DNA of 64,000 nucleotides, from NCBI GenBank assembly GCA_010093745.1, contig MU006013.1, positions 1 to 64,000 of the forward strand, given 5' to 3'. The DNA comes from Piedraia hortae CBS 480.64 (taxonomy: Eukaryota). Both the position numbers and the translations under genes were made by a program. Below are positions 1,242-53,310 of the stretch, one piece after another (position 1 is the stretch's first letter; the number at the start of each line of letters is the position of its first letter). The notes below the pieces were generated by a model that saw only the letters and a program-made list of their open reading frames with translations, was not told where the DNA came from and searched no databases.

Positions 1242-3557
1242 ATGGCAGACTCCACCCACATCGATCTCTGGGAGCATGCATCGCTTTTGTACCACAGCTA
1301 TGAGTGGAAAGACGCTGTCGGCATGTTCAAAAGCCTGTACAACGACATCAGCCATCCAGAGGGTCAAGCGCTTTGCGCCCTCAATGTGGCTATCATCTCT
1401 TCGCGTCTGGGAGACTACTCCATTGCACAGGAGTATATAGATAACGCTGCCAAGCGTTTGATGAGCTGGCCAATTGTCCCATACCTTGCGGCTGCCATTG
1501 ACTGGGCGTTGGGTCAATCGATCAAGGCACAGGCCGACATTCTTGTCTGCCTTCGCGGCTTGAAAAACCATGAAATTGACTACAACAACTGCGGACTGCA
1601 GTTTGTGCTTCGCTCAGAGGATGTGCGACATTTTAACGATATTTTTGATGCAATGGCAAACAATGTTGACGAAATCCCAACTCTTTGTGCTGTCCTTCCG
1701 GCCGAGAGTATATTTGAGGCCCCCCCGCGTACTCCATCCGGCTTCAAGGCAAGATCTTTCACACCTGATGAGCCTACTCAAACTAAAGGGAATAGATCGG
1801 AGCCCCTCAAAAATTTTCCGCCGCTGAGAATAAAAGCTGAAGCCTCATCTTCAGCAGAAGCTAACTGCAATGAATCGGACTTGAACTCCGCCGAATCGCT
1901 TTCTAGGTCAAGTGACGTTACCTCTGGGACGCGTTTTGGGCGTGACGTTAGCGACTCCGTCGTTAGTGCTCACTTCACCCGTGATCCCACCACTGCCCAC
2001 TCTCAAAATCCTGCACGCCTCTTGCAAACTTCATCTGCGACGACGAGTCAAGAGCAACCTATTACCACCGAGCAAACTCTAAACATGCCCCACAACCAGC
2101 GTACGTGCGGAACTCCCACATATACGCAGTTCCATAAGCCACTGCGAAAAAGCAATTCGGCGCCTTTGCTAAAAAAGGAGGCAACATCACCACAACCGGG
2201 CACTTGGGTGGATCCAACCACCCTATCCCAATATGCCCATATCCAAGCACCAAATCCCGTAAGGCTCGCACCTCTCCCATATGGGACTGCAGCTAGTCCC
2301 AGTTTTCAAAGCCAGCGGGACAAATATCCAAGGTCTCACTCATCGAAGGGCAAAGGGCGGAACTATAGGAAACATCCAAGACTCGCTCCAGGCACTGTCA
2401 CTGCACATCAATACATGCAGCGTGCCTCGTATAGGTCGTCCATAACACCACCAGGCGACATAGAATCTGAAAGTTTTCCATTATACGTGGACACGCCTTT
2501 GCCGGGTACCTCACAGGACCCGGTTCTCCATTCTTTTGACGACGACAGCCCGCCCCAATCGCCACGCATTCCCAAGGGGCCAGTACGGCGATTTGACGGG
2601 CAGACAGCCCGCGTACCCCTCGCTGTTCGCCGCAAGGCGTCAGCTCCCCAGCTAGCAGCAACGCCGAGGCTAACCGGTTTGGTTCACCCGGCGCTGAGAG
2701 AGTCGGAGGACGCTCAGCAAGACACACCCAGGACGCACCTTCGGTTTGAGACCGATCGTGTGTTCGCGGTGGAGTCGCCGCTGCCAAAGGAGGCAACCTC
2801 CACTGACCACAAGCGTTCGAAGAACTTTTTCCTCGCGCTGGGGAGAGCCAGGACGAAGAGCAGCGGGGGGGACACAGGTTCGTCTTCTGCGCTATCGCCG
2901 AAATTGTGGTCACCCAGGGCCACCGGCACCAAGAAAAATCTGGCCAATATTCGAAGCTTTTTGCGGCGCGGAGGCAGTCCAAAGAGACGAACGTCCTCAC
3001 CGGCATCATTTACCCGCACATGGCGACAGCGGCAAGTAATGCCAGTGGTGCCCCGAGACCCTCGGGGTGCGTCCCCCGACGGCACCCGGGAACTGGCCAA
3101 ATTCCTGCGCGGGGCCTCCCCCTCCAAGTTTGAAGCGCGGAGGACGTCGTTGTGTCGTCGTCGCTCGCACTCTTCCTCGTCTGTCGCCGCACCCGCTCGC
3201 ACTCCTCTTGGGGAGAGCGTGGAGGAGAGCACGCGCCCACAACGACCCAGAAATGTCTTGCCTGTTGTGCGCGGCCGCCCGGGTTTTCTTGACGCAAGCA
3301 CGGTGCCCTCTTCACAGTCTTCGAGCGGCTCGACCAATCCGGAGAGACGCTGCGAGATTGCCCGAGAGGCAGCACTCTGCGCTTTAGAGGGGCGCACACC
3401 GCCACAAAAGGGAAGGCACAGGGTCAAAGACAAGGCCCTTCCGCCAACTCCCCCCTTCCAAGACAACGGCCACGACCAAGATGATGGCAGCTCCAGGGTC
3501 AACAACACGGCCACCATGTCAAGCGAGGCGATCTTCAGGCTGGGCAGATCCTTGTGA
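1242..3557 (+). CDS. Protein with an N-terminal p67phox/NoxR-like TPR domain and a long Ser/Pro/Arg-rich disordered C-terminus
   Basis: 771-aa ORF. The first ~160 aa are helical TPR-like repeats ending IDYNNCGLQFVLRSEDV, resembling the p67phox/NoxR IDYxxLGLxFxL segment, followed by LPAESIFEAP. Confidence 0.6.
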   Translation: MADSTHIDLWEHASLLYHSYEWKDAVGMFKSLYNDISHPEGQALCALNVAIISSRLGDYSIAQEYIDNAAKRLMSWPIVPYLAAAIDWALGQSIKAQADILVCLRGLKNHEIDYNNCGLQFVLRSEDVRHFNDIFDAMANNVDEIPTLCAVLPAESIFEAPPRTPSGFKARSFTPDEPTQTKGNRSEPLKNFPPLRIKAEASSSAEANCNESDLNSAESLSRSSDVTSGTRFGRDVSDSVVSAHFTRDPTTAHSQNPARLLQTSSATTSQEQPITTEQTLNMPHNQRTCGTPTYTQFHKPLRKSNSAPLLKKEATSPQPGTWVDPTTLSQYAHIQAPNPVRLAPLPYGTAASPSFQSQRDKYPRSHSSKGKGRNYRKHPRLAPGTVTAHQYMQRASYRSSITPPGDIESESFPLYVDTPLPGTSQDPVLHSFDDDSPPQSPRIPKGPVRRFDGQTARVPLAVRRKASAPQLAATPRLTGLVHPALRESEDAQQDTPRTHLRFETDRVFAVESPLPKEATSTDHKRSKNFFLALGRARTKSSGGDTGSSSALSPKLWSPRATGTKKNLANIRSFLRRGGSPKRRTSSPASFTRTWRQRQVMPVVPRDPRGASPDGTRELAKFLRGASPSKFEARRTSLCRRRSHSSSSVAAPARTPLGESVEESTRPQRPRNVLPVVRGRPGFLDASTVPSSQSSSGSTNPERRCEIAREAALCALEGRTPPQKGRHRVKDKALPPTPPFQDNGHDQDDGSSRVNNTATMSSEAIFRLGRSL

Positions 3558-6853: not shown

Positions 6854-8164
6854 CTACCTTCCCCTCCAAAAAGTCCCGAAATCCAAACTCTTTATGTCGT
6901 CAGGCACTTTGAATGGATAAATCCTCTTGATCGGAATCCCCCTGAAATGCCTCTTCAACCTAGCGGCGTGGATCCTTCCCTTCGACCTCCCCCTCACAAA
7001 AACCGCCAGGATCTGATCCTTCGACACCGGCCTAAGTTCATTATACTTCTTCTCCAGATCCAAGAACAAAACAAACTTCCTCTCCGGGAACGTCTCCAGA
7101 ATCAAATTGATATTCCCTTCATTCGCGTCCTCGACCCATTCCGCCCCGATATCGTAACTGCCAGGCGGGTAGAATCTCTTCAGAAAAGGGGTATACATCC
7201 CCGATAGCTGCAGCGGGGCGTTGGTGATGTAATGGAAATGAACGTCGCAGCGAGGTGCGAATTGGGCGAAGAGGTGCGGCATATTCAGCCACGGGACGAA
7301 GGGTTTAAACGCGGACTTTTTCGGGTTAAATTTCGCCGTGTCGGGGGTACGTGTGCCTCGTTTCTCGGCCTCGCGTAGCACGGCGTCAATGTCGGCTATG
7401 ATTGTGACGCCTTCGGGTGGGACGAGGTTGATTTCTCCCTGGCTGTTCAGCGCGCTTTCGAAGCGGGACTGAATTCGTTTGATGCAGAAGGCAGCGTTGG
7501 GAGAGGGAGGGGGGACGGGGTCGAGAGGGGCGAATTCGTTAAATGTGCCCGGGAGTTCTGTGTCGCGGAGGAGGGTTACCTTTTGGTGGCCCTCCGAGCC
7601 AAGGAGAAGAGGGGGGACGGGGTGATTGAAGATAGGGTGGGAGTAGATTTCGGTCGTGAGGTCCAGAGCCTGGCCTCGGTCTTCCTGCGGGATCGAGTTC
7701 AGCGTCGCTTCGGCGTGACCGGTTAGGGCCTTGCCCCCGATAACGACTGATCCCGGAGTTCGCTCGACCATCTTGAACATTCGGCCGTGGACTCGGGCTA
7801 TCCATCGCCCGGGGTAGTGAGCTTTATCGGGGCGTGGCTCAGGGCTCCAGAATGCGTACGTATTCAAGTTCCGGATCCTGAGCGGCAGCGTACGGTTGTC
7901 GATACTATGGTATATGAAGTCATCAATCGCGTTGCCCAGTGTTTCCATTGCGAAGAGGTTTTGGTCCTTAATCTGGTAGAAGTTATTGAGGATCCAAAAC
8001 GTGGCCGCTATGACTTTGATGTATGCTCGATCCATGTTCTTAAAACGCTTGGGCACTGGATCATCATGCGATGAGCGGATATATCCGTACGTTGTGTGTG
8101 GATCATCTGCTTTGCAGTGGGAAAGACTGGCAAGCAGCAGTACAAGCGGACGTAAAGTGCGCAT
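6854..8164 (-). CDS. Secreted App1-like (DUF2183/HAD) phosphatidate-phosphatase-like protein, paralog 1
   Basis: 436 aa with an N-terminal signal peptide; LVPPEGVTIIADIDAVLR (DxDxV), FKPFVPWLNMP, HFHYITNAP, FYPPGSYD, ETFPERKFVLFLD. Confidence 0.75.
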   Translation of the reverse strand: MRTLRPLVLLLASLSHCKADDPHTTYGYIRSSHDDPVPKRFKNMDRAYIKVIAATFWILNNFYQIKDQNLFAMETLGNAIDDFIYHSIDNRTLPLRIRNLNTYAFWSPEPRPDKAHYPGRWIARVHGRMFKMVERTPGSVVIGGKALTGHAEATLNSIPQEDRGQALDLTTEIYSHPIFNHPVPPLLLGSEGHQKVTLLRDTELPGTFNEFAPLDPVPPPSPNAAFCIKRIQSRFESALNSQGEINLVPPEGVTIIADIDAVLREAEKRGTRTPDTAKFNPKKSAFKPFVPWLNMPHLFAQFAPRCDVHFHYITNAPLQLSGMYTPFLKRFYPPGSYDIGAEWVEDANEGNINLILETFPERKFVLFLDLEKKYNELRPVSKDQILAVFVRGRSKGRIHAARLKRHFRGIPIKRIYPFKVPDDIKSLDFGTFWRGR

Positions 8165-9071
8165 ATTGTTCTATATGTTGAAATTTCTTTGTGTGCAAAG
8201 TTAAGATCTTTGAGATAAAGTTGGAGACGGTGCGGGGATATGATTTTCAAAGGTGAAAGGATTTATAGACAGGTCTTGGCAGCACCCCACCGTTACAATT
8301 CATAACGCCTTAAGTCTCCACATTTCAAAGAGTAAAAACTTGCGACAACAAGGGACAGGAATGCGAAAAATCGTCGTCGCTCTCTGGTAAGCGAATAAGC
8401 GCCGCGCATTTTTGCTGCATTCGTCTCATTAGTAACATTGGGACGAGGCTATTAAGAGTCTGTACACTTTATCGCAGGTTCTACTGCAGAACTTCCTTAT
8501 AAGATGCTGTATTCTGCATCAGATTCCATCTCTTTCCAACGCTTTACCCAAATAGAAATGCCATAGTGCCTTGTTACCCCAGCACATCAAGACATGGAGG
8601 TTATTAACATAAAGCTAACAAATGAGAAACACAAAACGAGGCTACAAGTCATAGATCTGAAGGTCATTGCTGGTGAGTATCGGTCACGTGCGGGATGTAA
8701 GAGATGTCATGTTTTACAGTTCCCAGTTTCGAGTGACAGCTTCGTGACAGCTTCGTGACACCTTTCACTGCCACGTCAGGACTATGATCACAAACCAAAG
8801 GTATAGTCCTTACAGCAGGCAACCTAGTACATTCTTGCAAGATATACTCACGTGTTCATAGCGACGTATCTTATGTCGCCGAAAGAGACTCTAATGACGC
8901 ATCCTTTGCGCGTCCTCGCCGTAGTCTTGGGGCTAGTGATCTATCGATGTATATGTGAAGGCGGCGAGGGCTCTTTCTCACGAACGCTTGTTCGATACCA
9001 TTCCTGCTACAACTTTTGCCTGTGTATATCAACCAGAGTCTCCGTCCAAGAATCCTCCCACGACCACCACT

Positions 9072-10436
9072 TTAATTATATTTCTGCAACTTCGGAATGC
9101 CACACCCACCCGCATCAAAATCTAAACCCATCAGATCGTCTGGTTTCGTGAAATAGCGAATCTTGGTTTTAGGTATAAATTTCCAATTCTCCTTGAGGTT
9201 CGCAATCTTGAATTTCTCCCTATAATTCAGCGGAGCGATATCCCTGATCAAGATACACTCCAAACGACTCGGGGCCATGGTCGTGAATCTGTACCGTTTG
9301 GTCATATCCAATAGCAAATAAAACTTCCTGTTCGGGAACTTTTCCAGGATGAGATTGAGGTTAACTTCGCTTGGGAACCTCACATTCGTGCGTGCGGCAT
9401 CGAAGCTGCCGGGTGGGTAGAAATGCACAAGGAAACGCATGTACATGTCTGTAAAGGGCGAAGGAGCGTTGGTGATGTAGTGGAAATGAATGTCGCAGCG
9501 TGTTTTGAATTTGGCGAAAATTTGCGGCATATTCAGCCATGGACGGTAGGGTTTGAAAGCTGATTCTTTGAGACGTGGCATGTATTGTGAGACGCGCAAA
9601 ACGGCGTCAATGTCTGATACGATGGTGATTCCTTTGGGTGGGACAAAGAAGATGTCTGCTTGGCTTTTGATGGCGTTTGAAACTCTTGAGCGGATTCGTT
9701 TTACGCAAGCAGTATCGCTGTCCGGGGGACCAGAGAGTGAATGGAGCTCGGCAAATTCATCAAATTCGCCATGAAAGGTCGTTTCACTCGAAAGTTTGAC
9801 CGTTGCCTCCTCATGTGGGCCCAGCTTGATGGGTGGAACATAATGCCTCTTTACTGAATCAGCGACAACCTCGGCTGCGATGTCGAAGGCTTGGCGTCTT
9901 TCATCCTCCGGCACCTTTAGTAAAGGTTTTCCACCGATTTCTACCAGCGTTTTGCCCTTGATCAGATCAAGGCCTGGTGCCCTTTCAAGCACCTTGATCA
10001 TGCGGCCATGGAAACGAACAGTCCATGCGCCAGGGTCATAGGTATACTCATACTTTTTTTCCGGGGTCCAGTATGCGTATGAATTGAGATTCCGTACCCC
10101 AAGCGGCAGCTGTTTGCTACCGACGCGGAATGCTTTAAGACGTGTGATTGCGTAACCTACATTCTCAATTGTGTTAATATTTTTTTCCAGCATATGGTAT
10201 TCGTATTTGAGATCTGACAGTATGTAGTCGGACGTGGTTGCTTTGGGGATACGGCGCTCTAAGTGGTTTCCAGAAATGCATTCGACAGGTTGGTTGTGGT
10301 TTGAATACACGGTGGGTTCGAGGGACGTTCCTTGGATCGCTGATTGGTGGCCTAGAGTAATGTTTCCCGTTGGCGCGGCTTCGCCAAGGCGGGGGGCGCT
10401 GACGAGCAGAGATAAGAGTGGAATAATGGGATGCAT
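9072..10436 (-). CDS. Secreted App1-like phosphatase-like protein, paralog 2
   Basis: 454 aa; signal peptide (GEA|APT), LERR dibasic site; ITIVSDIDAVLR, PWLNMP, HFHYITNAP, YPPGSFD, FPNRKFYLLLD. Confidence 0.78.
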   Translation of the reverse strand: MHPIIPLLSLLVSAPRLGEAAPTGNITLGHQSAIQGTSLEPTVYSNHNQPVECISGNHLERRIPKATTSDYILSDLKYEYHMLEKNINTIENVGYAITRLKAFRVGSKQLPLGVRNLNSYAYWTPEKKYEYTYDPGAWTVRFHGRMIKVLERAPGLDLIKGKTLVEIGGKPLLKVPEDERRQAFDIAAEVVADSVKRHYVPPIKLGPHEEATVKLSSETTFHGEFDEFAELHSLSGPPDSDTACVKRIRSRVSNAIKSQADIFFVPPKGITIVSDIDAVLRVSQYMPRLKESAFKPYRPWLNMPQIFAKFKTRCDIHFHYITNAPSPFTDMYMRFLVHFYPPGSFDAARTNVRFPSEVNLNLILEKFPNRKFYLLLDMTKRYRFTTMAPSRLECILIRDIAPLNYREKFKIANLKENWKFIPKTKIRYFTKPDDLMGLDFDAGGCGIPKLQKYN

Positions 10437-11202
10437 GGTGTGGGAGTAGCCGAGGTTGCAGTTTGTGCAATTTCGAGAGGTTGAAAACGATTGAGGGAAA
10501 GTTAAGGCTTTTCAGATGTCAGGGTTTAACAGAATACAACATGACACGGTACCAAGGCATGCCCTTTTTTTTTTTTTTAAAAAAAAAAAAAGCTCTTCTA
10601 TAAACACATTCTGCCTACACCTTGTCGCGTGTCAAAGTAGGGTGCGAGTAGTTCATATCATAGACACAAAGAGCAGGATTCCGTAATCATAGACTGCGAC
10701 TTATGGTCAAACCCGCAGAAGGTGACTCATCCGCAACTCTGGATTCGAGCAAACTCAATTGTTTTGAGAACTGGTTGTGTCATCCTCAGCAATGTAGTGT
10801 CAACGGATCTATTATCTTTGTTTCCTAACCCTCCTCCCACTTTGAAATGACAGCTGGCATGACAGCTCCATGACACCTATCACCGGGAGCATGTTCGACA
10901 TGTCATGAATGTGATCTTGAACCGCGAGGAGAGTTTTCTCGTGAAACAAAACCTAATATATGTCCGTGCGATATATGCGCATGGTCTCGTTACAACGAGG
11001 CAGCAGGACAACAAGATCAAGAGTTGAAGACACATCCCCGCCGTGACCTTTGTCCTGCTGATTTCTCGACACATGTATGGAAATGGATAGTAAAGCTGTT
11101 TTGTCAATACAAACTCTGTCAGCAGTGTCCTTCAATCGCCGAGATTACATAAGCACGTCCGGAGAATGCTCCCTTCGAGCGTGCTCCCCACATATCCCCT
11201 AT

Positions 11203-12564
11203 TCAATCCTCTTGCTCTTCAGCAGGATTCCCACAATCCATCTTTTCAAGATCCAAGCCCATCAACTCATCAGGCGTCTTGAATAGCTTGACCTTCCTCA
11301 TGGGTATAGGCCTAAAATTCTTTTTGAGGTTAATAGGCTTGACACGTCCCTTGAAATCCCGTTGAGCAATGTCCCTGACGAAGATACACAGCAATTGGTC
11401 GTCGAAAGATCTTGATATCCTGTAACGTTTGGTCGAGTCCAGGAAGAGGATAAACCTCCTGTTAGGGAATGTTTGCGTGGCAAGATTGATATTAAGCTCG
11501 TTTTGGTGGCTCTTCTGCACCTTGCCAGTGTCAAAACTGCCTGGTGGGTAGTAGCGACGGAGAAGTCGCATGTACATATCCGTCAGGGCCACGGGAGAAG
11601 CAGTAATGTAGTGATAATGGATGTCGCAGCGGGTTTTGAACTGGTGGAACAGGTCGGGCATGTTCATCCATGGGATGAAGGGCTTGAACGCTGAGGTTTT
11701 GAGTTGGCTCTTCTCGAACGCGTCGCGCAAAACGGCATCGACGTCTGCTATGATAGTAGTTCCCTGGGGTGGGACGAGAAAAAGCTCTCCTTGGCTCCCG
11801 ACGGAGTTTATGAACCTTGTGCGGATCCGTCTGATGCAATATGGAGGGTTGCCGGAGGGTCCTGGGATCGAGTCGAGCGCAGCGAATCCTTCAAATTCGC
11901 CATGTATCGTCGTTTTCTGCGAAAGAGTGGCCATCTGCCTCTCTGGTAGGTCAAGTTCAATTGATGGAACAAGATGCTTCTTTTGCGAACGCGAAAATAC
12001 CTCGGCTGCGATATCGAAAGCTTGCATTCGTTCATCCTTTGGTATCATATTTAATCGTGGACCGGTGATTTCTATCAGAGGTTTGCCATGGACGATAGTC
12101 GACCCTGGACGTCTCTCAAGCATCTGGAACATTCGGCCATGGAAACGTGCAGCCCACTTGCCATGTTCATTGGTATAGCTAAACATTGGATCGTGGTTCC
12201 AGTATGCGTATGCGTTCAGATTCCGCACCCTAAGCGGCAGCGCTTCGTAATCAATATGCTGCAACTCAAACGAGCTGATTGCCGCGCCCAAGTATTGAAT
12301 TTTCTGAAGATTGTGTGCCTGCATTTGATTTTCGGATTTGAGGCCTTGCAGCATGGCTTGGGAGGTGGTATCTATCAGATGGCGTTTTGAGATATAATCA
12401 GAAACGCATCCAATGGATTGATTCTGATTTAAACATTGGGCGGATCGAAGGGGTGTATTCTGCATGGGCGGCTGGCGGTCAAGCGAGGAATTCCCAGTCG
12501 GCGCTGCTTCGGTAAAAAGAGTGGCGTTCAATAGCAGCGATAAAAGTAGAATTAGTTTGTTCAT
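11203..12564 (-). CDS. Secreted App1-like phosphatase-like protein, paralog 3
   Basis: 453 aa; signal peptide (TEA|APT), SKR dibasic site; TTIIADVDAVLR, PWMNMP, HYHYITASP, YPPGSFD, FPNRRFILFLD. Confidence 0.78.
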   Translation of the reverse strand: MNKLILLLSLLLNATLFTEAAPTGNSSLDRQPPMQNTPLRSAQCLNQNQSIGCVSDYISKRHLIDTTSQAMLQGLKSENQMQAHNLQKIQYLGAAISSFELQHIDYEALPLRVRNLNAYAYWNHDPMFSYTNEHGKWAARFHGRMFQMLERRPGSTIVHGKPLIEITGPRLNMIPKDERMQAFDIAAEVFSRSQKKHLVPSIELDLPERQMATLSQKTTIHGEFEGFAALDSIPGPSGNPPYCIRRIRTRFINSVGSQGELFLVPPQGTTIIADVDAVLRDAFEKSQLKTSAFKPFIPWMNMPDLFHQFKTRCDIHYHYITASPVALTDMYMRLLRRYYPPGSFDTGKVQKSHQNELNINLATQTFPNRRFILFLDSTKRYRISRSFDDQLLCIFVRDIAQRDFKGRVKPINLKKNFRPIPMRKVKLFKTPDELMGLDLEKMDCGNPAEEQED

Positions 12565-12902
12565 GGTGCTGTAATTTCAGTGCCTGCGATGTCGAAATGT
12601 TGAAGACGATGTTGTGGTAGGCTAAGGCTTTGTGCCAAGTTGTAATTTTACAGGATATGACATGACATGGTTGCCAAGCCTGCAAAGTTCTCCGACGTTC
12701 TGAATGCCCTCTAGCTATGGTACCTTTTTCGCATGTGTACCGAGTGGTGAAAATGTGCATATACCCATAACGTAACGAGATGGCCAGTCTCAAGGCCCAT
12801 TTCGGTTTTACTGTGTCAAGTAGCTACATGCCTGCTGATGCTCCGTCCGCATCGGATCAGGATTGGAGATGGGATTATCCACATAGAATTCGAAGCGCTA
12901 AG

Positions 12903-14719: not shown

Positions 14720-16148
14720 ATGGACCGTCCAGCCAAGCGCCAGCGGGTGTATACCTCCGAGTCCGAACCTGACAACGACTCCCAACACTCGTCATCACAT
14801 AACGAACCCTACCCCGTCTCAGACGACTCTCCCAGCGAAGACGACCAGCCCAAAGCAGTCGTAACACCCCCCTCACGCATCAAAACCAAGACCAAGAAAC
14901 CCGCCATCCCTCCTCTCCCAGTCAATCAAACATTCGCCTCCCTCGGCCTCTCCCCCTGGCTCGTCCAATCCCTCGCACGCCTATCCATCACGACCCCCAC
15001 CTCGATCCAAGTCCAAGCCATCCCCGTCCTCCTCGCCGGGAAAAACTGCATCGGGATAAGCCGCACTGGCTCCGGAAAAACAGTCTCCTTCCTCGCGCCC
15101 ATATTAGACCAATGGTCCCGCTCCCCCAGCGGACTCTACACCCTAATCCTAACCCCAACAAGAGAGCTCGCCCTCCAAATCCACGAACAAGTCCTCGCCA
15201 TTGGCGCCCCGGCCAATCTCAAATCATTATGCATAACCGGCGGAAGCGACTACGTAGCCCAAGCCACCGCCCTCTCGCGGAAACCACACATCCTCATCGC
15301 GACCCCCGGGCGGCTGGCAGAACACATCCAAAACTCACCCACCGAACACCAGTCGGCGTTCAGGCGACTAAAATACCTAATCCTCGACGAGGGTGACCGC
15401 CTGTTGAAAGGAAACATCCTCCCCTCCGTAACAACCTGTCTCGAAATACTCCCTCCAAAGGCCCAACTCCGCACGGGTCTCTTCACCGCAACCCCCTCCC
15501 CTGCCGAAATCCGCGCAGCGATTAACTCAAACCCTGCTGAAACCGTCGTCATCGACATCAACAGCAACAGCAGCAACCCGGAGGCTGGCTCCCTAACCCT
15601 CCCCCCAGGTTTGCAACAAAGGTACATCCTCGTCTCCGTGTCTTACAAAGAAACCTACCTGCACCTCTACCTCGTCACCCTCCCCACCCAATCCGTCATA
15701 GTATTCACGAACCGCGCGTTGACAGCTCAAATCATACACTCGACCCTCCGTAACCTGAAGTATGAGGTCACAGCGCTGCACTCGAACCTCACGCAGCGCG
15801 AGCGGGCCGCGAACCTCGCTTCTTTCCGCGCGCGGAAGGCGCGGGTGCTTGTAGCTACTGACCTCGCGGCACGGGGGCTGGACATTCCCGCCGTGGAGGT
15901 CGTGGTCAATTATGACCTACCGCGTGATTGCGAGGATTATGTTCACCGCGTGGGGAGGACGGCGAGGGCGGGGAGGGATGGGAAGGCGGTTTCGTTGGTG
16001 GGACAGAGAGATGTGGGGCTTCTCAGGGGGGTGGAGGGGAGGGTTGGGGTAAAGATGGAGGAGGAGGGGGAAGGGTGGACGGATAGGTTGGTCAAAGGGG
16101 ATACGTTACAGACGGTGGGAAGGGCGGTTAGGAGGGCGAGGCTGGGGG
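14720..16148 (+). CDS. DBP8: DEAD-box RNA helicase Dbp8, 3' end lost in the gap
   Basis: Q motif FASLGLSPWL..PTSIQ, SRTGSGKT, PTRELALQI, TPGRL, DEGD, TAT, ARGLDIP, YVHRVGRTARAG. Confidence 0.88.
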
Positions 16149-16953
16149 NNNNNNNNNNNNNNNNNNNNNNNNNNNNNNNNNNNNNNNNNNNNNNNNNNNN
16201 NNNNNNNNNNNNNNNNNNNNNNNNNNNNNNNNNNNNNNNNNNNNNNNNNNNNNNNNNNNNNNNNNNNNNNNNNNNNNNNNNNNNNNNNNNNNNNNNNNNN
16301 NNNNNNNNNNNNNNNNNNNNNNNNNNNNNNNNNNNNNNNNNNNNNNNNNNNNNNNNNNNNNNNNNNNNNNNNNNNNNNNNNNNNNNNNNNNNNNNNNNNN
16401 NNNNNNNNNNNNNNNNNNNNNNNNNNNNNNNNNNNNNNNNNNNNNNNNNNNNNNNNNNNNNNNNNNNNNNNNNNNNNNNNNNNNNNNNNNNNNNNNNNNN
16501 NNNNNNNNNNNNNNNNNNNNNNNNNNNNNNNNNNNNNNNNNNNNNNNNNNNNNNNNNNNNNNNNNNNNNNNNNNNNNNNNNNNNNNNNNNNNNNNNNNNN
16601 NNNNNNNNNNNNNNNNNNNNNNNNNNNNNNNNNNNNNNNNNNNNNNNNNNNNNNNNNNNNNNNNNNNNNNNNNNNNNNNNNNNNNNNNNNNNNNNNNNNN
16701 NNNNNNNNNNNNNNNNNNNNNNNNNNNNNNNNNNNNNNNNNNNNNNNNNNNNNNNNNNNNNNNNNNNNNNNNNNNNNNNNNNNNNNNNNNNNNNNNNNNN
16801 NNNNNNNNNNNNNNNNNNNNNNNNNNNNNNNNNNNNNNNNNNNNNNNNNNNNNNNNNNNNNNNNNNNNNNNNNNNNNNNNNNNNNNNNNNNNNNNNNNNN
16901 NNNNNNNNNNNNNNNNNNNNNNNNNNNNNNNNNNNNNNNNNNNNNNNNNNNNN
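16149..16953. other. Assembly gap (805 N)
   Basis: Run of N. It hides the 3' ends of DBP8 and of the GH3 gene. Confidence 1.
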
Positions 16954-19351
16954 GAACGACCTCGTCGCCGGCGCGGGAGCCCGTGTTTTGGATCGTGGCG
17001 GACACGGTGAACATGACATCATACAGTCTTTCGTTGCCACCGGGAGAGACGCTGCTGCCTGCGCGGAGATAGGGCTGCGGCGAGGAATCGTAGCTCCCGT
17101 CTGGGAAGGTGTAGTTGGTGCCGTACTCGGGGTCGCCCGACGACTTGGCTAGATCGGTCGAGTTGAGCCACGGGTAGATGTATGCCCATACACGGTTGAT
17201 GCCGGATGGATAGAGGTAGTCGCTCGTGCGGTTCGAAATGGTGCCATATGTCTTGGCCGCAGAGGTTTTGCCCCTTGGAGCAGTGTAGGGCCGCGTTGCA
17301 TGTGGCGTGACCTGCAGGTTGGAGTAGCTGAAGTTGGTGTACGACAAGCCATGGCCAAACTCGTAGATGGGATCGATACCCGCTTTGTCAAAGTGGCGGT
17401 AGTCGATGAAGATGCCCTCGGTGAAGCTCTGCTGCGGCTCGCGGTCGGGACCATAGTTGGCGTCGTAGAGCACATCCGTGCCGTAGTCTTCGCGAGAAGC
17501 GCCCCAGGTGAAGACGCTCTTTCCACCAGGATTCTGCTTGCCGTAGAGAATGTCGACAATGGCGTTGCCAGATTCCTGACCCGGAATGCCGGCCCATATG
17601 ATACCCGTCACGTTGGGGTTGTCGTAGAACGAATTAACCAGCACCGGCCCCACGCTGTGGATGACAACGATGGTGTTGTTGCATTGCGCAGTAACATTCT
17701 TGATTAACGTGTCGCCATCGTGCCATAGAGTCAGATTATTCCGGTCACCCTCGTTGCCGTCGACGGTAATGTATCCTTCGCCAGCATCGGAGTTGACAAA
17801 AGCAAGACACACGCCGTTGACAATGGGCACGCGTCGAGCAAGAGCATTGATCTGAGTATAGGCATAGTCGTCAGTAATGCCTTCGACGGTGCCTCCCTGG
17901 CTGACGACTTGGGCTTTGATGGCTTCCAACGGGGTAACGAGATATGGGAAATCTGCGGTTCCGGAACCCCAGCCCAAGGCCAGCGTGCCCTGATCGCAGC
18001 CGCGGTCGGCACAGCCATTGGCTCCCCACGGGTTTCCTCCAGCGTCGGAGCCGAAGACGGCGGTAAGCTTCTCCTTGCCAGACAGAGGCAACGAGCCAGA
18101 GTTCTTCAGCAACACGGTACCCATGGCAGCTTGTTGGCGAATTTGCTGACCATGGTTGCCGCGAACATCGACGTGGTGGTTCACAACGCCATAGTCTTGG
18201 GACGCGTAGAAGTGTTGGAATCCCTCGGTGTCCAAGGTCCATGACGAAAAGTTGGGCGCATCTGGCACCTGGTTCTGGTCCCTGCCGACATAGTAGTAGC
18301 CAGCCATGATGCGGACACACATGTCGTCCAACCGCCACTGCGGGACGGTGCCGTTCAACACGGCAACGGTCAGGTTGGTCCCGAAGAACGAATCGCCCGT
18401 GTCAAAGGCAGTGTCGCCAGGCATGCTCATGTCAAGTCCAGCCAGAGTGCTGCTGACTCCAGAGTGATGAGCGCCCCAGTCACTTACGACGAAGCCCTGG
18501 AAGCCGAGTTCGTTCTTCAGCAAATGGTTCAACGTATACGAGTTCTGACATCCCCAGCTGTTGTTGATGTACTGATAAGAGCACATGACACTGGCACTTC
18601 CCGCGCGGACGGCGTCTGCAAAGGGCCACAGATAGAGCTCGTGCATCGTGACATCGTCAACGTTGGCACTGACGGTCTGCAAGGTCGGGGCGGCGCCGTT
18701 GCGGAATCGTTCTTGCTCGTTGAAAATTAAATGCTTCAGACTGCACATTACGCCAGCAGACTGGGTTCCCTTGATGGTTTCGGCTGCAGCAACACCGGTA
18801 AGATAGGGATCGGGAGAGAAGCCTTCCCAGTTGCGGCCGCCTTCTGGAGCGCGACCCAAAGGTCCAACGACGGGACCAAGCTGGACGTCTACGCCTTTGC
18901 CCTTGTGCTCCTCGCCGATTCCACGGCCACGCTGACGAATGAGCTCGCGGTCCCAGGTCGAGGCAATGGTGACGCCAGCCGGGAAAGCCGAGTTGTAGTC
19001 GGTAAACCGGAGACCCAAGGGCGAGTCTTGCAGACACAATGCGTTGAAGCCGAGTCGGGGGATGGAGCCCGTGGTGCCCACGCACTTTTCACTCTGCCAT
19101 CCAGTGCCAGTGGTGAGGTTGACCTTTTCAGCAAGGGTCAGTTTGGAGACAAATGCCCGGGCTTTGGCGTAGGACGCGGCCCAGTCGCCCATGCCGGAGC
19201 CCCATGGCGAGGGATAGCTGGGCGGAGACGTCTGCCAGTCTCTTGCCCCGTCTACTCCGGATGAGTTGCTGCTGCCAGACGAGTTGGAGAAGGGGGCCTG
19301 GGCAGCTGTCAAGGGCAGCAGAGCCAGGAAAGATGCACGCAGGAAGCCCAT
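16954..19351 (-). CDS. Secreted GH3 beta-glucosidase (BglA/Bgl1 type), C-terminus lost in the gap
   Basis: Signal peptide; TLAEKVNLTTG, GGRNWEGFSPDP, KH, ELGFQGFVVSDW (nucleophile Asp), EGDR, YEFGHGLSY. A probable 5'-UTR intron lies at ~19367-19454 (gtatag..ctaac..tag on minus). Confidence 0.95.
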
Positions 19352-22137: not shown

Positions 22138-24084
22138 ATGCCCCCCAGAACCCTCCTACTAATCTACATCCACGGCTTCCACGGCGCACCGTCCACATTC
22201 AACACCTTCCCCCTCGACCTGCACAACTCCCTCTCTATACCAAACTACACCATCTACACAAAACTCTACCCCCGCTTCCCTTCACGACGAAGCATCCTCT
22301 TTGCGCGGGACGCATTCATGGCGTGGCTGACCCCGCATCTTACCGCCACCACAGATGTCATCCTCCTAGGCCACAGTATGGGTGGCTTACTCGCCGCTGA
22401 AGTGGCGTTGACACGGGAATGTAACGTCCTCGGAACGGTTAATCTTGATGTGCCGTTTTTGGGGATCCATCCGGGTGTTGTAAAGGCGGGGCTGGCGAGT
22501 GTGTTTGCTGGGAAGGGGGAGATGGAGGGGAATATTGTCAATGAAGCTGGGGAGCAGGAGGGGGGGGCAGCGGGGGATATAGCTCAAAGCGAAGACATGG
22601 AAAACTCTAAGCCGAACCTCAAAGACGATTCTAAAGAAGATGATGACCCCAAAGGATCCTCCAAAGCCGGCTCCAAAAAGGACGAACTTACGGTCACCAT
22701 GAAGTCTAACGAAAATGACAACACCCAAGACTCCAGCCCCAAAGACACCCACCCACAATCCCCCTCCAATGATGATAAATTCAACCCCCCCTGGCCAAAC
22801 GACCCCCTCGCCCCCTCCCGCGCGCCCTGGGAAAGCGTAATCCACTTCGTAAGCAAACACTCACGTGAACTACGCTCCGCGACGAAGAACCTAATCGCTT
22901 CGCATCTCGAGTTTGGCGGTGCAATGACGAAACATAACGAGTTGGGGGGCAGGTATATCTCTTTGAGGTTGCTTGAGGAGGGCGAGGGGAGGGTTGAGGG
23001 TAGAGATGGGAGTAGGGATGCTTCGCGCGTGAGGTTTGTGAATTATTATACTGCTTGTTGCTGCACTATTGGGGGTGGGGAAGTGGGAAGGGAGAAGAAG
23101 GGAAAGGGAAAGGAGGAGGTGGAAGTGGTGGAGGGGGAGGAGGGGAAGGAGAAGGAGAAGGAAGAGGGAAAGGAGGATGTAGATGTAGCTGAGAAAGCAG
23201 AGGCAAAGGGGTCTGACAAAAAGGTGGGGGAAAGAAGCAGGGAGCAGCCTGAAGAGATGGAGAACGAAGAGGGCACTGAGGAGAAGGACCAGACTGAGAC
23301 TCAGACTCCCAAACAAGAAGCTAAAACCCCCAAACCCAAGGACGAACAGGAGCAAGCTCTCCCTGGGACCGTAGAGGGCTCGAAAGATAAACTTAACCAA
23401 TCTGCAGAGGGAAATGAGATGCGAAAAGATCAAACCACCCCAAACGAAGAGTCCACCAGAGACGACAACCTACCCCCAACGCCGTCCGAAGAAGCTATCC
23501 TAACACCCGAAAAGCAAACAAAAGAAGCCGAAAAGGCCAGAAAGGCAGCAGAAAAACTCGAAAAGGAAAAAGCCAAACTTGAAGAGAAAAATCGCAAAGA
23601 GGCTGAGAAGCTGAAAGAGAAATCGCGCAAAGAGGCTGAAAAGGCACGTAGAGACAAGGAGAAGCAGGACGAAAAAGCTCAAAAGGAGAAACTAAGGCAG
23701 GAGAAGGAGAGGCTCAAGCAGGAGGAGAGAGCCCAAAAGGAGAGGCTGAAACAAATGGAAAAAGCAAGAAAAGACTCTGAAAAACAAGAAGAAAAATCCC
23801 GCAAAGAGTCCGAAAAAGCAGCACGCAAAGCCTCCCTTCCTGACGGCGAGCAAAGAGAAAAAACATTCTGTCTTCTCCCCCCAACCGACTCCCAGGGCAT
23901 CACAGACCCAACGTGGGTCAAAGTTCTGTTTAGGGATACAGATCAAGTGGGCGCGCACTGCGGGATGTTTCTCTTCAAAGAAGACAACGACCTCGAAAGG
24001 GATCGTTACGAGCGATTCGTGGAACGAGTCGCCGAGAGAATCACAATATGGATAGACGAGAAAGCACGGACAGACGATAAATGA
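22138..24084 (+). CDS. Alpha/beta-hydrolase (DUF676-like) with long Glu/Lys-rich inserts
   Basis: LLIYIHGFHG, GHSMGG nucleophile elbow, DVPFLG, RFVNYYT, and C-terminal TFCLLP..W..DQVGAHCGMF carrying the putative catalytic His. Confidence 0.75.
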   Translation: MPPRTLLLIYIHGFHGAPSTFNTFPLDLHNSLSIPNYTIYTKLYPRFPSRRSILFARDAFMAWLTPHLTATTDVILLGHSMGGLLAAEVALTRECNVLGTVNLDVPFLGIHPGVVKAGLASVFAGKGEMEGNIVNEAGEQEGGAAGDIAQSEDMENSKPNLKDDSKEDDDPKGSSKAGSKKDELTVTMKSNENDNTQDSSPKDTHPQSPSNDDKFNPPWPNDPLAPSRAPWESVIHFVSKHSRELRSATKNLIASHLEFGGAMTKHNELGGRYISLRLLEEGEGRVEGRDGSRDASRVRFVNYYTACCCTIGGGEVGREKKGKGKEEVEVVEGEEGKEKEKEEGKEDVDVAEKAEAKGSDKKVGERSREQPEEMENEEGTEEKDQTETQTPKQEAKTPKPKDEQEQALPGTVEGSKDKLNQSAEGNEMRKDQTTPNEESTRDDNLPPTPSEEAILTPEKQTKEAEKARKAAEKLEKEKAKLEEKNRKEAEKLKEKSRKEAEKARRDKEKQDEKAQKEKLRQEKERLKQEERAQKERLKQMEKARKDSEKQEEKSRKESEKAARKASLPDGEQREKTFCLLPPTDSQGITDPTWVKVLFRDTDQVGAHCGMFLFKEDNDLERDRYERFVERVAERITIWIDEKARTDDK

Positions 24085-33954: not shown

Positions 33955-34100
33955 CGATCCTTGCCTGTGCCTCGGCATGTCGATCGTATGATCGACACTG
34001 TAGTCGCTGATAGATTAATTGTTTTTGTACATAGTTCCGCCCGCCGGCTCGGGCGGGCAGTCCTGTCTTTCTTTCATCGCTGTTTTCTGTCCACACCAGT
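33955..34100 (-). repeat. Repeat family A, copy 2
   Basis: The reverse complement matches 4864-5012. Confidence 0.85.
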
Positions 34101-34734: not shown

Positions 34735-34888
34735 GGTGTCTATGAAGAAAACAGCGATGAAGGAAGTAGAACAACGCGACTGCCCGCCCGAGCTGGCGGG
34801 CGGAACTATATACGAAAAACAACCGAACTATCTGCGACATCAATATCGATCATGTGCCTCTACAAGCCGAGGCACCGGCAAGGATCGC
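34735..34888 (+). repeat. Repeat family A, copy 3
   Basis: aaaacagcgatgaagg..acaacgcgactgcccgcccgagctggcgggcggaactata..gccgaggcaccggcaaggatcg. Confidence 0.85.
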
Positions 34889-35904: not shown

Positions 35905-36578
35905 TGTCGGAGGGGTGAACCTCCGAGGACTGTAGAGATTTGGTTCTCGTGGGTGAGAGTGCACAGCGACCCGAAGAGGACGGAGCGATAGACAGAATCA
36001 GGGACTGGAAAGATGTAGATGTATGTGAGTCAAATACCAGTTGCAGTATGGTAGTGTGAATGACTATTGTTTTTTCAATGTGGGGACGTTCAGAATGAAA
36101 ATTCTGCACCGGTGGGCCGGTGACGTCACGTCGTACACTAGCGGGGCGTATTCAACATGTCACATATGACATGACCCTGAGGGAAAACCTCTGTGAGGGA
36201 AAAACCTAGGGTGCAGCTGGTAGTGTAGGAGGTATCGCTGACTTGCTATGCAAGTGCCCTGCATACGCGCTAGCGGCGATGCTTGAATCCAACAAGGACT
36301 AGAGCGGAGTGGATGTCAACGACAAAAGTTTTCACTCAAGTTTTACTGAAAAATGTGTAATGTAGATCTCTATCTCTATGAGGTGAGGTTCAAAATCTCC
36401 CCCACACTACCTCAGTCTAACCGCATTTGCCAGGACAACGTCAGCGAACCATGCCCTTAAGCATGAACGAGACAATGACCCGTCTCAGGGAAAACTTCCT
36501 CTATAGAGGTAAAAACCCTGAGAAGTTTCGACTTCTATCTATGGTTCTGGTCATGGTGGGTGCTACATCCTTTTGACA
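35905..36578. mobile_element. Solo LTR (674 bp)
   Basis: TGTC...GACA termini; flanks ATATC and ATGTC (5-bp TSD with one transition); the copy at 5013-5315 shares both termini. Confidence 0.75.
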
Positions 36579-38026
36579 ATGTCCAACCTTGAGAGTGTAC
36601 CATGTCACTGGCTCAGATGCTGTTTAACAGTCGCACATAATTTGTGTGGCCAAGCCCCAAAGGAGAGTTGCACCCGACACCGCCAGCTCCCAGTCACATC
36701 TGCAAAAGTTCCTCAGAGAGTTCGCAAAGCCTGCGCTCAAAGTGCAGTCTTCGGATTCTCCTATCGCTTTTGCGAACATCACCTCGTAATGGAAGACTAT
36801 GCAAAGGCTAAAGACATTTATTTCGCGATTAATGTCAAAAAATTGGCATTTGTGGTTCTGCTGAACATATTTTTGCCACTCGTAGCTTATTGTCCACTGC
36901 CAGAACTGATTCACGCTATCTGTTGCTTTCCAAACGGGGCTGGGTAACCAAAAAACTGACAAAGCCATCGCCATAGATGGGACTGTGTGGGCAAAAGCAA
37001 CAAGGGTGAGACTGCAAGACCGTATCCAGGATGGCCGGAGAGATTGGATGGTAATCAGAATGCCACGGAGGCGGACGGACCACCGTTCGAGTTCTGAATG
37101 GGTCATGTGCTTGCTGCCTGGGGCGTCATCGAAGGATCGAGGATACTTCAATGCGAAGTGCCCCACCACACTTGTGATTTTCTTGCTGCGACCTGATTTG
37201 CTTTAAATTTCTACACTACACACCCTTCATCGCTTGGAGTAGATCGCACAGGGTATACGCGCCGGGGCTAGGACGGTCTGTTCGATGCACGAATAATTTT
37301 TGGAACTGAATCAAGAACGGGATTCCACCGACGAACACCTCTTTCAGAAATCAAGTCATCAAAAATGCGCTTGTTCAACTGACGAATCAAGCCGCCGCTC
37401 GTGGGGCCACAATGGCTTCTGCACTTACCAATGTAACCCGCAGCAAACTTTCAGCTGATTTGCTTCGTCAAGAAACATCATATCACGCCTGCTAAAGTGC
37501 CATCTGACCGGCAGTTCTCTTTGTCGGACGAGGTACATACCACTTTGTTGAAGATGTCGTCGCATAGCCAAGCACAAGCATTACAGACGGTAATATGAAA
37601 CTTACACGTCAAAGCCCTCTGGAGCGATGAAGCACTCGAGAATTCATCGTTGTCCTGAATAGTGTAAACCAAAATTTTGGCACCAACTGGCGCACTCTGC
37701 TAGCAATGAGGCATCAGTATCTTCATAATGGATTCCATCGGAAATAGAGAGAGATTCGAGGCGTCTATATATTGCGCCGCACCTTTACCAAAGCAGTATA
37801 AGTCAACAGTGGCGAATGCTGATGTTTTTTACGTAAGCGGTAAACGTACAGGTTCGGCTGTGGCAGAAGCGTTGTGGATACCAAAGTGGTATCGAATCTT
37901 CTTTTTCTCTGGAGTGCACCACAAATCAGCTTCGCATTCTTGAACACCAAATTTTGCCACGAGAGACTCATTCAGTACGTATCAGCTCTGCACCACTCTT
38001 CGAGAAATACTAATGTTTGCCAAGCG

Positions 38027-38800
38027 ATGCCGACCCGCCATTCCACTGCTGGCCGCCTCGCGGATGAGGTCTTTGATCTCCTGGAGGATTCCGCGGCAGA
38101 AGCAATCAAATTCGGTGTAGAGGCCGCTACGGCGCATTTCGAGCGCGAGCTTCGCGAGCTGCTCGAGTGTTTGCTTGTAAACGCTTTACACCGTTACGTT
38201 GCTGCATATGTCGTGGATGATCTCAATCAGGCCTTCGACGGCCGCCAAGAAAATCGCACCGTTCGTCAAAGCCTGGAGGGCAAACCGTGGATTGTCGATA
38301 GTACCCCCCATAAGGCAGTCAAGAGTTGGGTAGCCCTCAGGGACGTAAAGCCTTTGCTGGGAAGTCCCGCAACTCGGCTGTCATGGCAGGGCCGTCCACG
38401 TATCGCCCCAAGCTATATTTTTCTCATACCACAGATTCGTCACTGGAGTTTTTTGGGGAGGAGGATGAGTTCCCGGTCCCCACTAGCGCGGAAAACATGT
38501 AGTGCTCTATGGAAGCGATTGCCAAACGTGGCTCAGAAGGCGGTAAGATGGAAGGACTGTCGTGTGTGGGTGTATAACGAGACCGAGGGACTGGCTTGGG
38601 GCCACGAACCTGCCATGCAAATCACGCGGTGGTATCTATTCAAAAGGAACGAGTCGCAGATCAAGCGCACCCTAAGTACACTGGCGGGGGAGCCCTGTGC
38701 GGACAATACCTTCTTCCTGCAGGCTGCAGCGATGAGTTCAAGCCATCGCATAAGTACCCGCAACTTGAAAACCCCCGTAGTACTGCTGCCTCGCGCATAG
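38027..38800 (+). CDS. Lineage-specific hypothetical protein with an acidic helical N-terminus; possibly decaying
   Basis: ATG at 38027 follows a canonical intron at 37975-38024 (gtacgt..ctaat..aag). A paralogous segment lies at ~52672-53200. Confidence 0.4.
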   Translation: MPTRHSTAGRLADEVFDLLEDSAAEAIKFGVEAATAHFERELRELLECLLVNALHRYVAAYVVDDLNQAFDGRQENRTVRQSLEGKPWIVDSTPHKAVKSWVALRDVKPLLGSPATRLSWQGRPRIAPSYIFLIPQIRHWSFLGRRMSSRSPLARKTCSALWKRLPNVAQKAVRWKDCRVWVYNETEGLAWGHEPAMQITRWYLFKRNESQIKRTLSTLAGEPCADNTFFLQAAAMSSSHRISTRNLKTPVVLLPRA

Positions 38801-52671: not shown

Positions 52672-53310
52672 TCCCCAGTTGGTGCGGTCTGTCAGGAATG
52701 AGGCGTCAGTCTCTCCATGACGGTTTCTCTTGAGAACAAAGAGAGGTTCAACCGTTTATGTACCGCGCCACAACCTGACCAAAGCGATACGAGGCAAGTG
52801 CGGCAAATGCGGTCTTTTTTGTACGTAGGCGATAAACGTACAATTTCGGCTACGGCACAAGCGTTGTGGAGACCAAAGTGGTATCGGATCTTGTTTTCCT
52901 CCGGAGTGCACTATACCAGCTTCGCCTTCTTGAACACCAAATTTTGCCACGAGAGACTCATCCAGTACGTATCAGCTCTGCATCACTTTTCGACAGATAC
53001 TAGTGTTCGCGAGGCGATGCCGTTCCGCCATTCCACTGCTGGCCACCTCGCGGATGAGGTCCTTGACCTCCTGGAGGATTTCGCGGCAGAAGCAATGACG
53101 GTCGATGTAGAGGCCGCTACGGCACATGTTGAGCGCGAGCTTCGCGAGCTGCTCGAATGTTTGCTTGTAGACGCTCTACGTTCCTGCCTATGTCGCTGAT
53201 AATCTCTGGGACGATCTGGCCGACATCGCGAGGGAAGCCATGCAGACCGGGTGGCGCGGAGGAAGGGCCACTTCCGACGCAAGCTACGCAAGCTCTTGTG
53301 GGAGGGCATG
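52672..53310 (+). pseudogene. Frameshifted paralog of the 38027 gene
   Basis: High nucleotide similarity to ~37680-38220; ATG at 53017; a deletion near 53180 shifts the frame. Confidence 0.6.

Follow-up and report, generated by a model that had tools for sequence, protein, structure and literature searches.

What do three neighbouring genes of Piedraia hortae CBS 480.64 encode, and do their products, which resemble the App1 protein of yeast, still work as phosphatases? Yeast App1 is a cytosolic, actin-patch-associated, Mg2+-dependent phosphatidate phosphatase. The three genes, denoted A, B and C, are located on contig MU006013.1 (assembly GCA_010093745.1), within the first 64,000 nucleotides of its forward strand; this whole stretch of DNA is referred to below as the window. 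A sequence-only reading of the window had described them as a tandem trio of secreted App1-like haloacid dehalogenase (HAD) phosphatases, possibly a cluster of extracellular lipid phosphatases or effectors, and had singled them out as the best candidate for an undescribed system in the window.

In this work, profile searches, phylogenetic analysis, structure prediction and residue-by-residue comparison were combined to examine this proposal. The trio is assigned to the APP1_cat family by profile, yet, as judged from the aligned sequences, it fails three residue-level features that are conserved in the sampled family. The explanation that we prefer, with a probability of roughly 0.4, is that the products are secreted HAD proteins that bind metal and phosphate and still act on an anionic phosphomonoester, with rebuilt auxiliary residues and an altered activity.

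Family membership

Only one Pfam family, PF09949 (APP1_cat), was found for the trio at E<=1, with scores of 39.5 bits for A, 44.4 bits for B and 44.1 bits for C against a gathering cut-off of 27.1 bits, and the same assignment is repeated in Protein Atlas with scores of 0.87-0.91. The App1-type domain that had been proposed from the letters of the sequence was thus recovered by a profile. No relationship to lipin or LNS2 was detected at the profile level, since no Pfam family besides APP1_cat reaches E<=1.

In an exhaustive profile search, 1803 cluster representatives reached E<=1e-3 and 75 of them E<=1e-30, and many of these relatives were aligned over profile positions 90-444, which comprise both the N-terminal domain (N-domain) and the HAD domain. 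One Tulasnella protein had been included in the search profile and in the first alignment, so the ranks of the Tulasnella sequences are inflated and partly circular. Word-based searches returned only the three gene calls of the window itself and one Tulasnella protein at near lengths, and nothing among 732 candidates at shorter lengths, where the partial Piedraia hortae protein described below was missed. Peptide patterns specific to the trio matched 82 stretches in a scan of metagenomes, of which none could be confirmed as a relative.

Relatives were found in Basidiomycota (Tulasnella, Ceratobasidium, Schizophyllum and Punctularia) and in Ascomycota (Cercophora, Geopyxis, Ascobolus, Cryomyces, Trypethelium, Bathelium, Patellaria, Aulographum and Piedraia), and all named relatives that were looked up are annotated as 'hypothetical' or 'APP1 catalytic domain-containing'. 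A loose signal-peptide rule is passed by 36 of the 46 full-length family candidates, and a full-text search of the literature outside subscription journals and supplements returned no published study of fungal secreted App1-like proteins; both results agree with the statement in the sequence-only reading that uncharacterised App1-like proteins bearing signal peptides occur in filamentous fungi. By sequence comparison, the trio is a derived branch of a widespread and unstudied fungal App1-like family and not a separate system, so that the earlier idea of a stand-alone undescribed system has to be abandoned in view of the number of cluster representatives at E<=1e-30.

Examples of this unnamed family include Schizophyllum commune SCHCODRAFT_02490216, Cercophora newfieldiana KAK0651523.1 and Tulasnella sp. 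403 FRB99_003496 and FRB99_003497, which have in common with the trio the architecture of an N-domain followed by a HAD domain and signal-peptide-like N-termini. In contrast to the trio, which is basic, poor in glycosylation sequons and tail-less, with remodelled motifs, typical family members are acidic and rich in sequons, and contain DIDD(I/V), two basic residues and GDTSNxD. Tandem duplication is also seen in Tulasnella sp. 403: FRB99_003496 (protein P0005) and FRB99_003497 (protein P0004) have adjacent locus tags on a contig of 92,952 bp and group as sisters in both trees described below; as judged from sequence relationships, this basidiomycete pair arose independently of the trio. In P0004, too, motif IV is without its second Asp (GDTSNTSGYY).

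Phylogeny and selection

A partial protein of 199 amino acids from Piedraia hortae CBS 480.64 (KAF2860502.1, hereafter the Piedraia fragment), comprises the HAD domain only, over which it shares 42% identity with B. When 70 sequences were placed in a quick tree, the trio formed one clade with a support of 100 in the Shimodaira-Hasegawa-like approximate likelihood ratio test (SH-aLRT), and its stem measured 1.31 changes per site. A second, more careful tree, computed for the HAD domain from 39 rows and 199 columns, gave the topology (Piedraia,(B,(A,C))), with supports of 100/99 for the four-member clade, 97/86 for the trio and 100/84 for A+C, and a stem of 0.9 changes per site; the bootstrap of this tree was not fully settled (correlation 0.964). 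The nearest neighbours of the trio are Dothideomycete sequences in both trees. The lineage-specific expansion that had been suggested is in agreement with the monophyly of the trio within the four-member clade. From the tree topology, the triplication appears to be later than the split from the lineage of KAF2860502.1, and the clade appears to be older than the triplication.

The branching order of the trio, with A and C as sisters, disagrees with the physical order A-B-C, and the GC content at third codon positions (GC3) is 0.66 in A versus 0.54-0.55 in B and C. The A+C grouping may reflect the order of duplications or gene conversion.

In all three pairs of paralogs, the proportion of nonsynonymous differences (pN, 0.32-0.40) is lower than that of synonymous differences (pS, 0.57-0.77; Nei-Gojobori method), and the ratio of nonsynonymous to synonymous substitution rates (dN/dS) is 0.39 for B-C and 0.25 for A-B, within a range of 0.25-0.56 over the pairs. 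On these estimates the trio is under purifying selection and all three copies are maintained, in agreement with the intact expansion proposed in the sequence-only reading. Repeat-induced point mutation (RIP) was considered as a cause of the divergence and rejected: in all gene and spacer segments, the TpA/ApT index is 0.50-0.88 and the (CpA+TpG)/(ApC+GpT) index is 1.07-1.52, both outside the RIP ranges.

Predicted fold

An AlphaFold2 model of B, computed with an alignment of 106 sequences, has a mean predicted local distance difference test score (pLDDT) of 79.9 and a predicted template modelling score (pTM) of 0.81. The model contains a disordered stretch at residues 13-62, two helices at residues 68-105, a beta-rich region at residues ~110-265 and an alpha/beta region at residues 266-444. 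The best match in a Foldseek search of the Protein Data Bank (PDB) was the LNS2 domain of Nir2 with phosphatidic acid (E 8.6e-10), followed by the lipin/Pah proteins of Tetrahymena (E ~1e-5). In VIA re-alignments, residues 915-1174 of Nir2 were superposed on residues 110-444 of the model with Z 17.0 over 243 residues and a root-mean-square deviation of 3.7, and residues 20-320 of Tetrahymena Pah2 on residues 112-443 with Z 14.8, whereas ordinary HAD enzymes match the model at residues 266-447 only, with Z 9-12. In the model, B after residue 110 has the two-domain lipin/LNS2 architecture.

The known proteins with this fold, Tetrahymena Pah2 (PDB 6tzz, 7lhk and 9d15) and the LNS2 domain of Nir2 (PDB 9jtz), superpose over both domains (Z 14-17 on residues 110-444), and differ from the trio in being intracellular and only 10-12% identical to B. 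The motif II Arg of Pah1 has no counterpart in the trio, position 324 being Ala, Ser and Ala. According to the literature, the LNS2 fold of Nir2 is essentially identical to that of lipin/Pah and recognises the phosphate of phosphatidic acid (PMC12582312), and both lipin/Pah and Nir2 LNS2 bind phosphatidic acid (PMC12582312, PMC12357310).

A sequence search of the PDB with the trio found no relative, its sole match being a chance similarity of the disordered N-terminus to a streptococcal surface protein (E 0.019). The N-terminal regions were also inspected for an amphipathic helix of the lipin type; the hydrophobic moment peaks at 0.36-0.59, and for A and B the peak lies in strand or loop and not in predicted helices.

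The trio has two invariant cysteines, Cys244 and Cys314 (B numbering); the second of them also occurs in the Piedraia fragment, at a position where the family has mostly Leu, Ile or Asp. The two may form a clade-specific disulfide between the two domains. The C-terminal Cys pair is missing from gene A.

Export

Signal-peptide-like N-termini were sought with a strict rule, which demands an uncharged 9-mer with a mean Kyte-Doolittle hydropathy of at least 2.5 that starts by residue 10 and is followed by small residues at positions -3 and -1. Among the 39 ORFs (open reading frames) of the window that start with ATG and encode at least 150 amino acids, exactly the three genes of the trio were selected; the same rule is passed by 20 of the 46 full-length family candidates and by none of the 117 Kri1 homologues that served as a negative control. 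The loose hydrophobicity rule is unspecific, as it flags 11 of the 39 ORFs. Signal-peptide-like N-termini, as proposed for all three genes, are thus seen with a heuristic.

The only hydrophobic 19-mer of the trio with a hydropathy above 1.6 lies within the signal peptide of C, and a hydropathy scan detected neither a transmembrane segment nor a hydrophobic C-terminal tail in any of the three proteins, from which a soluble extracellular protein would be expected. The trio is predicted to be exported outside the cell.

Early dibasic sites are present in all three proteins, as the sequence-only reading had noticed, at KR39-40 in A, RR61-62 in B and KR60-61 in C. All three sites map to the part of the B model that has a pLDDT below 50 (residues 13-62), just ahead of the first confident helix. 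As a family-wide pro-peptide signal the dibasic site is not supported, since it occurs in 11 of 36 signal-peptide-like relatives, with a density of 0.5 per 100 amino acids versus 0.79 in the remainder of the proteins, and thus shows no enrichment. Processing of the trio by a Kex2-type protease is plausible but unsupported.

The basic character of the domain noted earlier is confirmed, and it sets the trio apart from its family: the isoelectric point (pI) of the core domain is 9.37-9.71 in the trio versus a family median of 5.77 (29 members, 25 of them below 8.5), with whole-protein values of 9.28-9.46 in the trio. The number of N-X-S/T sequons is 1, 1 and 3 in the trio versus a family median of 6, and a hydrophobic C-terminal tail is found in 6 of the 36 signal-peptide-like relatives. 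The sequons and tails of these relatives fit proteins of the cell surface.

By analogy, the nearest functional precedent for export is provided by GRA38 and GRA39 of Toxoplasma gondii. GRA38, a secreted App1-like protein, is active in vitro as a phosphatidate phosphatase, and this activity requires its DxDxT/V motif (PMC12711892). The trio resembles the two proteins as a set of exported App1-like HAD paralogs; their function depends on DxDxT/V, and a metal site of three Asp has been modelled for them. It differs from them in that GRA38 and GRA39 are apicomplexan and GRA38 is active, whereas the auxiliary residues of the trio are changed; the two systems are likened here by their description.

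Active site

In HAD enzymes, the metal and the phosphoryl group are held by the nucleophile Asp of motif I, the Asp at +2 from it, the Thr of motif II and the first Asp of motif IV. These four residues are kept in the trio and also in the Piedraia fragment. D275 and D277 of motif I (B numbering, used throughout) are invariant in 106 of 106 aligned sequences; 98% of the family have Thr or Ser at the position of T322 in motif II, which lies at the end of strand 316-325 in the context HFHYIT; and 99% have Asp at D377, the first Asp of motif IV. The trio is similar to Saccharomyces cerevisiae App1 in its Pfam family, in the Asp pair of motif I, in the Thr of motif II and in the Asp of motif IV. 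It differs from App1 in having signal peptides, Ala at position 4 of motif I and no basic residue at the presumptive motif III site, and its motif IV reads LDxxK(K/R)Y, whereas GD(T/S)(S/G)NxD is found in the App1 family.

The register of motif IV was settled with the Piedraia fragment, in which LDTSKLY aligns residue for residue with GDTSNSD: Gly is replaced by Leu, a Lys is gained at +3 and Asp is replaced by Tyr at +5. The gained Lys and Tyr are invariant in the clade. In the wider family, one row of the alignment, P0064, has GDSGEKD as its motif IV. A six-residue deletion that removes a conserved Arg/Lys from the trio was obtained identically in the MAFFT alignment and in the alignment to a hidden Markov model (HMM) built from the family only, and it is shared by the Piedraia fragment. 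The derived active-site residues are common to the trio and the Piedraia fragment despite an identity of 40-51%, and the fact that they are identical in the trio and shared with the fragment suggests that the rebuilt site itself is constrained.

Proposed function and alternatives

The preferred explanation begins with a lineage-specific tandem triplication of one gene from a derived subclade of the fungal App1-like family. Each product would consist, in this order, of a signal peptide, a disordered stretch of ~40 residues ending near the dibasic site, two helices, a beta-sandwich and an App1-type HAD domain. After export, it would bind the phosphoryl group of an extracellular anionic phosphomonoester, probably a phosphatidate-type lipid phosphate, in a metal-dependent manner; in models of GRA39, Mg2+ or Mn2+ is placed on the three corresponding Asp residues (PMC12711892). 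The aspartyl-phosphate site would operate with rebuilt supports: the base of motif III and the second Asp, both lost, would be replaced by the new Lys and Tyr of motif IV, although compensation of that base by the Lys is pure conjecture. With the auxiliary residues rebuilt, both the activity and the substrate range are expected to differ from those of yeast App1. In their mode of action, the proteins would most resemble App1 and phosphatidate phosphatases of the lipin type, or the LNS2 sensor.

A number of observations weigh against this explanation. Position 278, the fourth of motif I, is Asp in 103 of 103 other relatives, Ala in the trio and Gly in the Piedraia fragment. Position 348, which is Arg in 75% and Lys in 14% of the family, is Ala, Gly and Gly in the trio, and position 356, which is Arg in 62% and Lys in 34% of 98 relatives, is Ser, Asn and Asn and falls inside the six-residue deletion. 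Position 376 is Gly in 87% of the family and Leu in the trio, and the second Asp of motif IV is lost, with Tyr in B, C and the Piedraia fragment and a gap or Tyr in A. Position 356 would correspond to HAD motif III: it is found 21 residues ahead of motif IV, where helix 355-366 begins, and strand 371-377 comes after this helix; the assignment was made from the spacing and the model helix. At the prevailing identity of ~25%, loop alignments may shift by one residue, and B and C have an Arg or Lys one position from the lost Arg348, while A has none. In Pah1, a protein of the same fold, no activity is left after the substitutions K496A in motif III or N530A or D534A in motif IV, and G529A causes a sevenfold drop (PMC12357310); since equivalent residues are affected here, normal catalysis by the trio is doubtful. 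Finally, a single Piedraia hortae fragment backs the clade beyond the trio, dS is saturated in both pairs that include A, and the signal peptides rest on home-made rules and not on a trained predictor.

These losses lend themselves to a second explanation, which is possible, if doubtful: the proteins would be secreted pseudo-phosphatases which, in the manner of Nir2 LNS2, bind or sequester anionic lipids such as phosphatidic acid, or anionic surfaces, without hydrolysing them. Motif III has lost its presumptive base and motif IV its Gly and second Asp, a second conserved Arg is missing as well, Pah1 needs the equivalent residues of motifs III and IV for activity (PMC12357310), and the shift of the core pI from the acidic family median to strongly basic values is what a binder of anionic lipids could show. 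The best structural match points the same way, as Nir2 LNS2, a domain that senses and does not hydrolyse (PMC12582312), scores higher than the active lipin/Pah proteins; however, a gap of two Z units within one shared fold is small and does not discriminate. It also speaks against a dead enzyme that the four core residues are kept in four clade members over long branches, which would be unusual, and that three carboxylates without a metal would repel phosphate. In a more specific and rather speculative form of this idea, the trio and the Piedraia fragment would represent the first extracellular protein of the Nir2-LNS2 type, a basic protein with the App1/lipin fold and a metal-phosphate clamp of three Asp and a Thr, which without turnover recognises, sequesters or masks phosphatidic acid or other anionic phospholipids on foreign or own membranes; in a variant of it, the base that motif III has lost may be replaced in its function by the Lys of motif IV.

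The opposite possibility, that the trio are ordinary exported, Mg2+-dependent phosphatidate or lipid-phosphate phosphatases like yeast App1, seems unlikely. It draws on the APP1_cat match, on the formal DxDx(T/V) motif and on the precedent of GRA38, which is secreted, App1-like and active on phosphatidate (PMC12711892), but all three copies deviate at five positions whose conservation among 97-103 relatives is 87-100%, and the mutagenesis of Pah1 (PMC12357310) argues in the same direction. The label of lipid phosphatase given by the sequence-only reading presumes a normal App1 site and is not supported in that form, as the trio has retained no more of this site than the DxD pair, the Thr of motif II and one Asp of motif IV.

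It is less probable still that the proteins stay in the lumen of the endoplasmic reticulum (ER), the Golgi or the vacuole and act there on internal lipid phosphates. A signal peptide indicates entry into the ER only, and the dibasic processing sites lack statistical support; on the other side, the C-terminal ends WRGR, QKYN and EQED of the trio are not of a retention type, there is no membrane anchor, and the relatives, with their tails and sequons, fit the cell surface. That the genes are functionless duplicates drifting to pseudogenes, with the motif changes as decay, is very improbable: the long branches (stem 0.9-1.3), the lost conserved residues and a dN/dS above usual housekeeping values would suit it, but all three frames of 1.3 kb have stayed open while their amino-acid sequences diverged by more than 50%, pN is below pS throughout, the derived residues are identical in the paralogs and shared with the Piedraia fragment, and no RIP signature is seen.

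Gene models and genomic context

The coordinates of the genes and of their features are listed in Table 1. As had been noted, the trio consists of three co-oriented, intact ORFs, which are 40-47% identical to each other in pairwise comparison. The window contains exactly three copies and no fragments in a tblastn search with the three proteins and two relatives. All three ORFs run colinear with the family-only HMM, from its position 54 of 431 to position 401 (392 in the case of A), with scores of 218.9 bits for B, 215.7 bits for C and 173.6 bits for A, and this unbroken alignment suggests that no exon is missing and no intron was missed. The database gene calls of 309 amino acids for B and 383 amino acids for C start at an internal Met; the full ORFs with signal peptides were judged better.

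Table 1. Positions in the window of the trio genes, their predicted domains and motifs, and the conserved upstream blocks
Feature	Position	Strand	Location or length	Remark
Gene A	6854..8164	(-)	436 aa ORF	Secreted (predicted) App1-like paralog, most diverged copy
Gene B	9072..10436	(-)	454 aa ORF	Secreted (predicted) App1-like paralog; copy used for modelling
Gene C	11203..12564	(-)	453 aa ORF	Secreted (predicted) App1-like paralog
Signal-peptide-like N-terminus of A	8108..8164	(-)	Residues 1-19	Heuristic; cleavage inferred from -3/-1 rule
Signal-peptide-like N-terminus of B	10377..10436	(-)	Residues 1-20	Heuristic
Signal-peptide-like N-terminus of C	12505..12564	(-)	Residues 1-20	Heuristic
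Beta-sandwich domain of B (model)	9642..10109	(-)	Residues 110-265	Matches N-terminal part of lipin/Pah and Nir2 LNS2 chains
HAD-like App1 catalytic domain of B (model)	9105..9641	(-)	Residues 266-444	Pfam match at residues 270-399
Motif I of A, DIDAV	7379..7393	(-)		Both Asp kept, Ala at position 4
Motif I of B, DIDAV	9600..9614	(-)	Residues 275-279	
Motif I of C, DVDAV	11731..11745	(-)	Residues 274-278	
Remodelled motif IV of A, LDLEKKY	7043..7063	(-)		Family consensus GD(T/S)(S/G)NxD
Remodelled motif IV of B, LDMTKRY	9291..9311	(-)	Residues 376-382	
Remodelled motif IV of C, LDSTKRY	11422..11442	(-)		
Conserved upstream block of A	8721..8768		557-604 bp before ATG of A	Three TGACA(G/C)CT units
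Conserved upstream block of B	10835..10883		399-447 bp before ATG of B	Three TGACA(G/C)CT units

The spacers upstream of A and B cannot be aligned outside one short block, in which the TGACA(G/C)CT units are spaced by 11-12 nt; the block is absent from the 338-bp spacer 5' of C. The 8-mer TGACA(G/C)CT occurs 7 times in the window versus 2.35 expected occurrences, and one of 100 shuffles reaches 7. The block may be a shared cis-regulatory element and is a candidate binding site of a transcription factor.

With respect to expression, none of the listed sequencing runs is recorded as RNA; one of them, X2, which is RNA only by guess, gave a single contig of 3382 nt that is colinear with gene C on 11122-12900 without gaps or differences; it extends 81 nt beyond the stop of gene C and, in the other direction, through the spacer into Kri1. 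No cover of A or B was found in this run, and the DNA run that is the likely source of the window covers all three genes. The coverage in X2 establishes neither expression nor silence of any copy.

The neighbours of the trio in the window are housekeeping genes, encoding Kri1, a DEAD-box helicase, a GH3 glycosidase and a MIOS-like protein. The best homologues of Kri1, in full-length alignments, are from Dothideomycete and Leotiomycete fungi, at just 44-50% identity, which places the window in a sparsely sampled part of the Pezizomycotina. The trio had been said to lie beside decayed repeats, which holds in part. Dispersed fragments do exist, as 4885-5315 matches 33955-34024, 34759-34854 and 36373-36578 at 81-91% identity, and these are probably remnants of mobile elements and the sole decayed repeats near the trio; between the trio genes, in contrast, no repeats were found besides the short shared upstream block, and RIP has left no signature. 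A further repeat pair, in the same range of identity, was observed at 37825-38189 and 52817-53179, and one of the dispersed fragments of the window is inverted.

Other features of the window were noted as follows. A run of 805 N at 16149-16953 lies inside the ORF region of the DEAD-box helicase, and the ORFs that span it (for example, 16106-19351 and 14720-17152) are artefacts. The ORF at 22138-24084, which includes a GA-rich (purine) tract of low complexity at 23078-23281, has a weak match to alpha/beta-hydrolases (23.9 bits versus a Pfam cut-off of 26.3 bits), and no Pfam family was found at E<=1e-3 for the 771-aa ORF at 1242-3557 (+).

Conclusions

The finding is a moderate one, as the family is recognisable by Pfam and the activity, secretion and biological role of the trio remain predicted. 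App1-type phosphatases are known as intracellular lipid enzymes, and the family described here is a large, unstudied fungal branch that appears to be routed to the secretory pathway. Within this branch, a small clade has had its active site rebuilt under selection and its charge reversed. The residue swaps of the trio offer clear hypotheses for mutagenesis, whether the proteins hydrolyse or only bind. If the trio hydrolyses extracellular lipid phosphates, it would be a fungal parallel to GRA38 and would provide a handle on the turnover of phosphatidate and lysophosphatidate. If it only binds, it would be a natural case of a HAD phosphatase turned into a secreted lipid sensor, and, should the LNS2-like interpretation be true, the triplication and the shared TGACA(G/C)CT block would point to the dosage or diversification of a factor for surface interaction.

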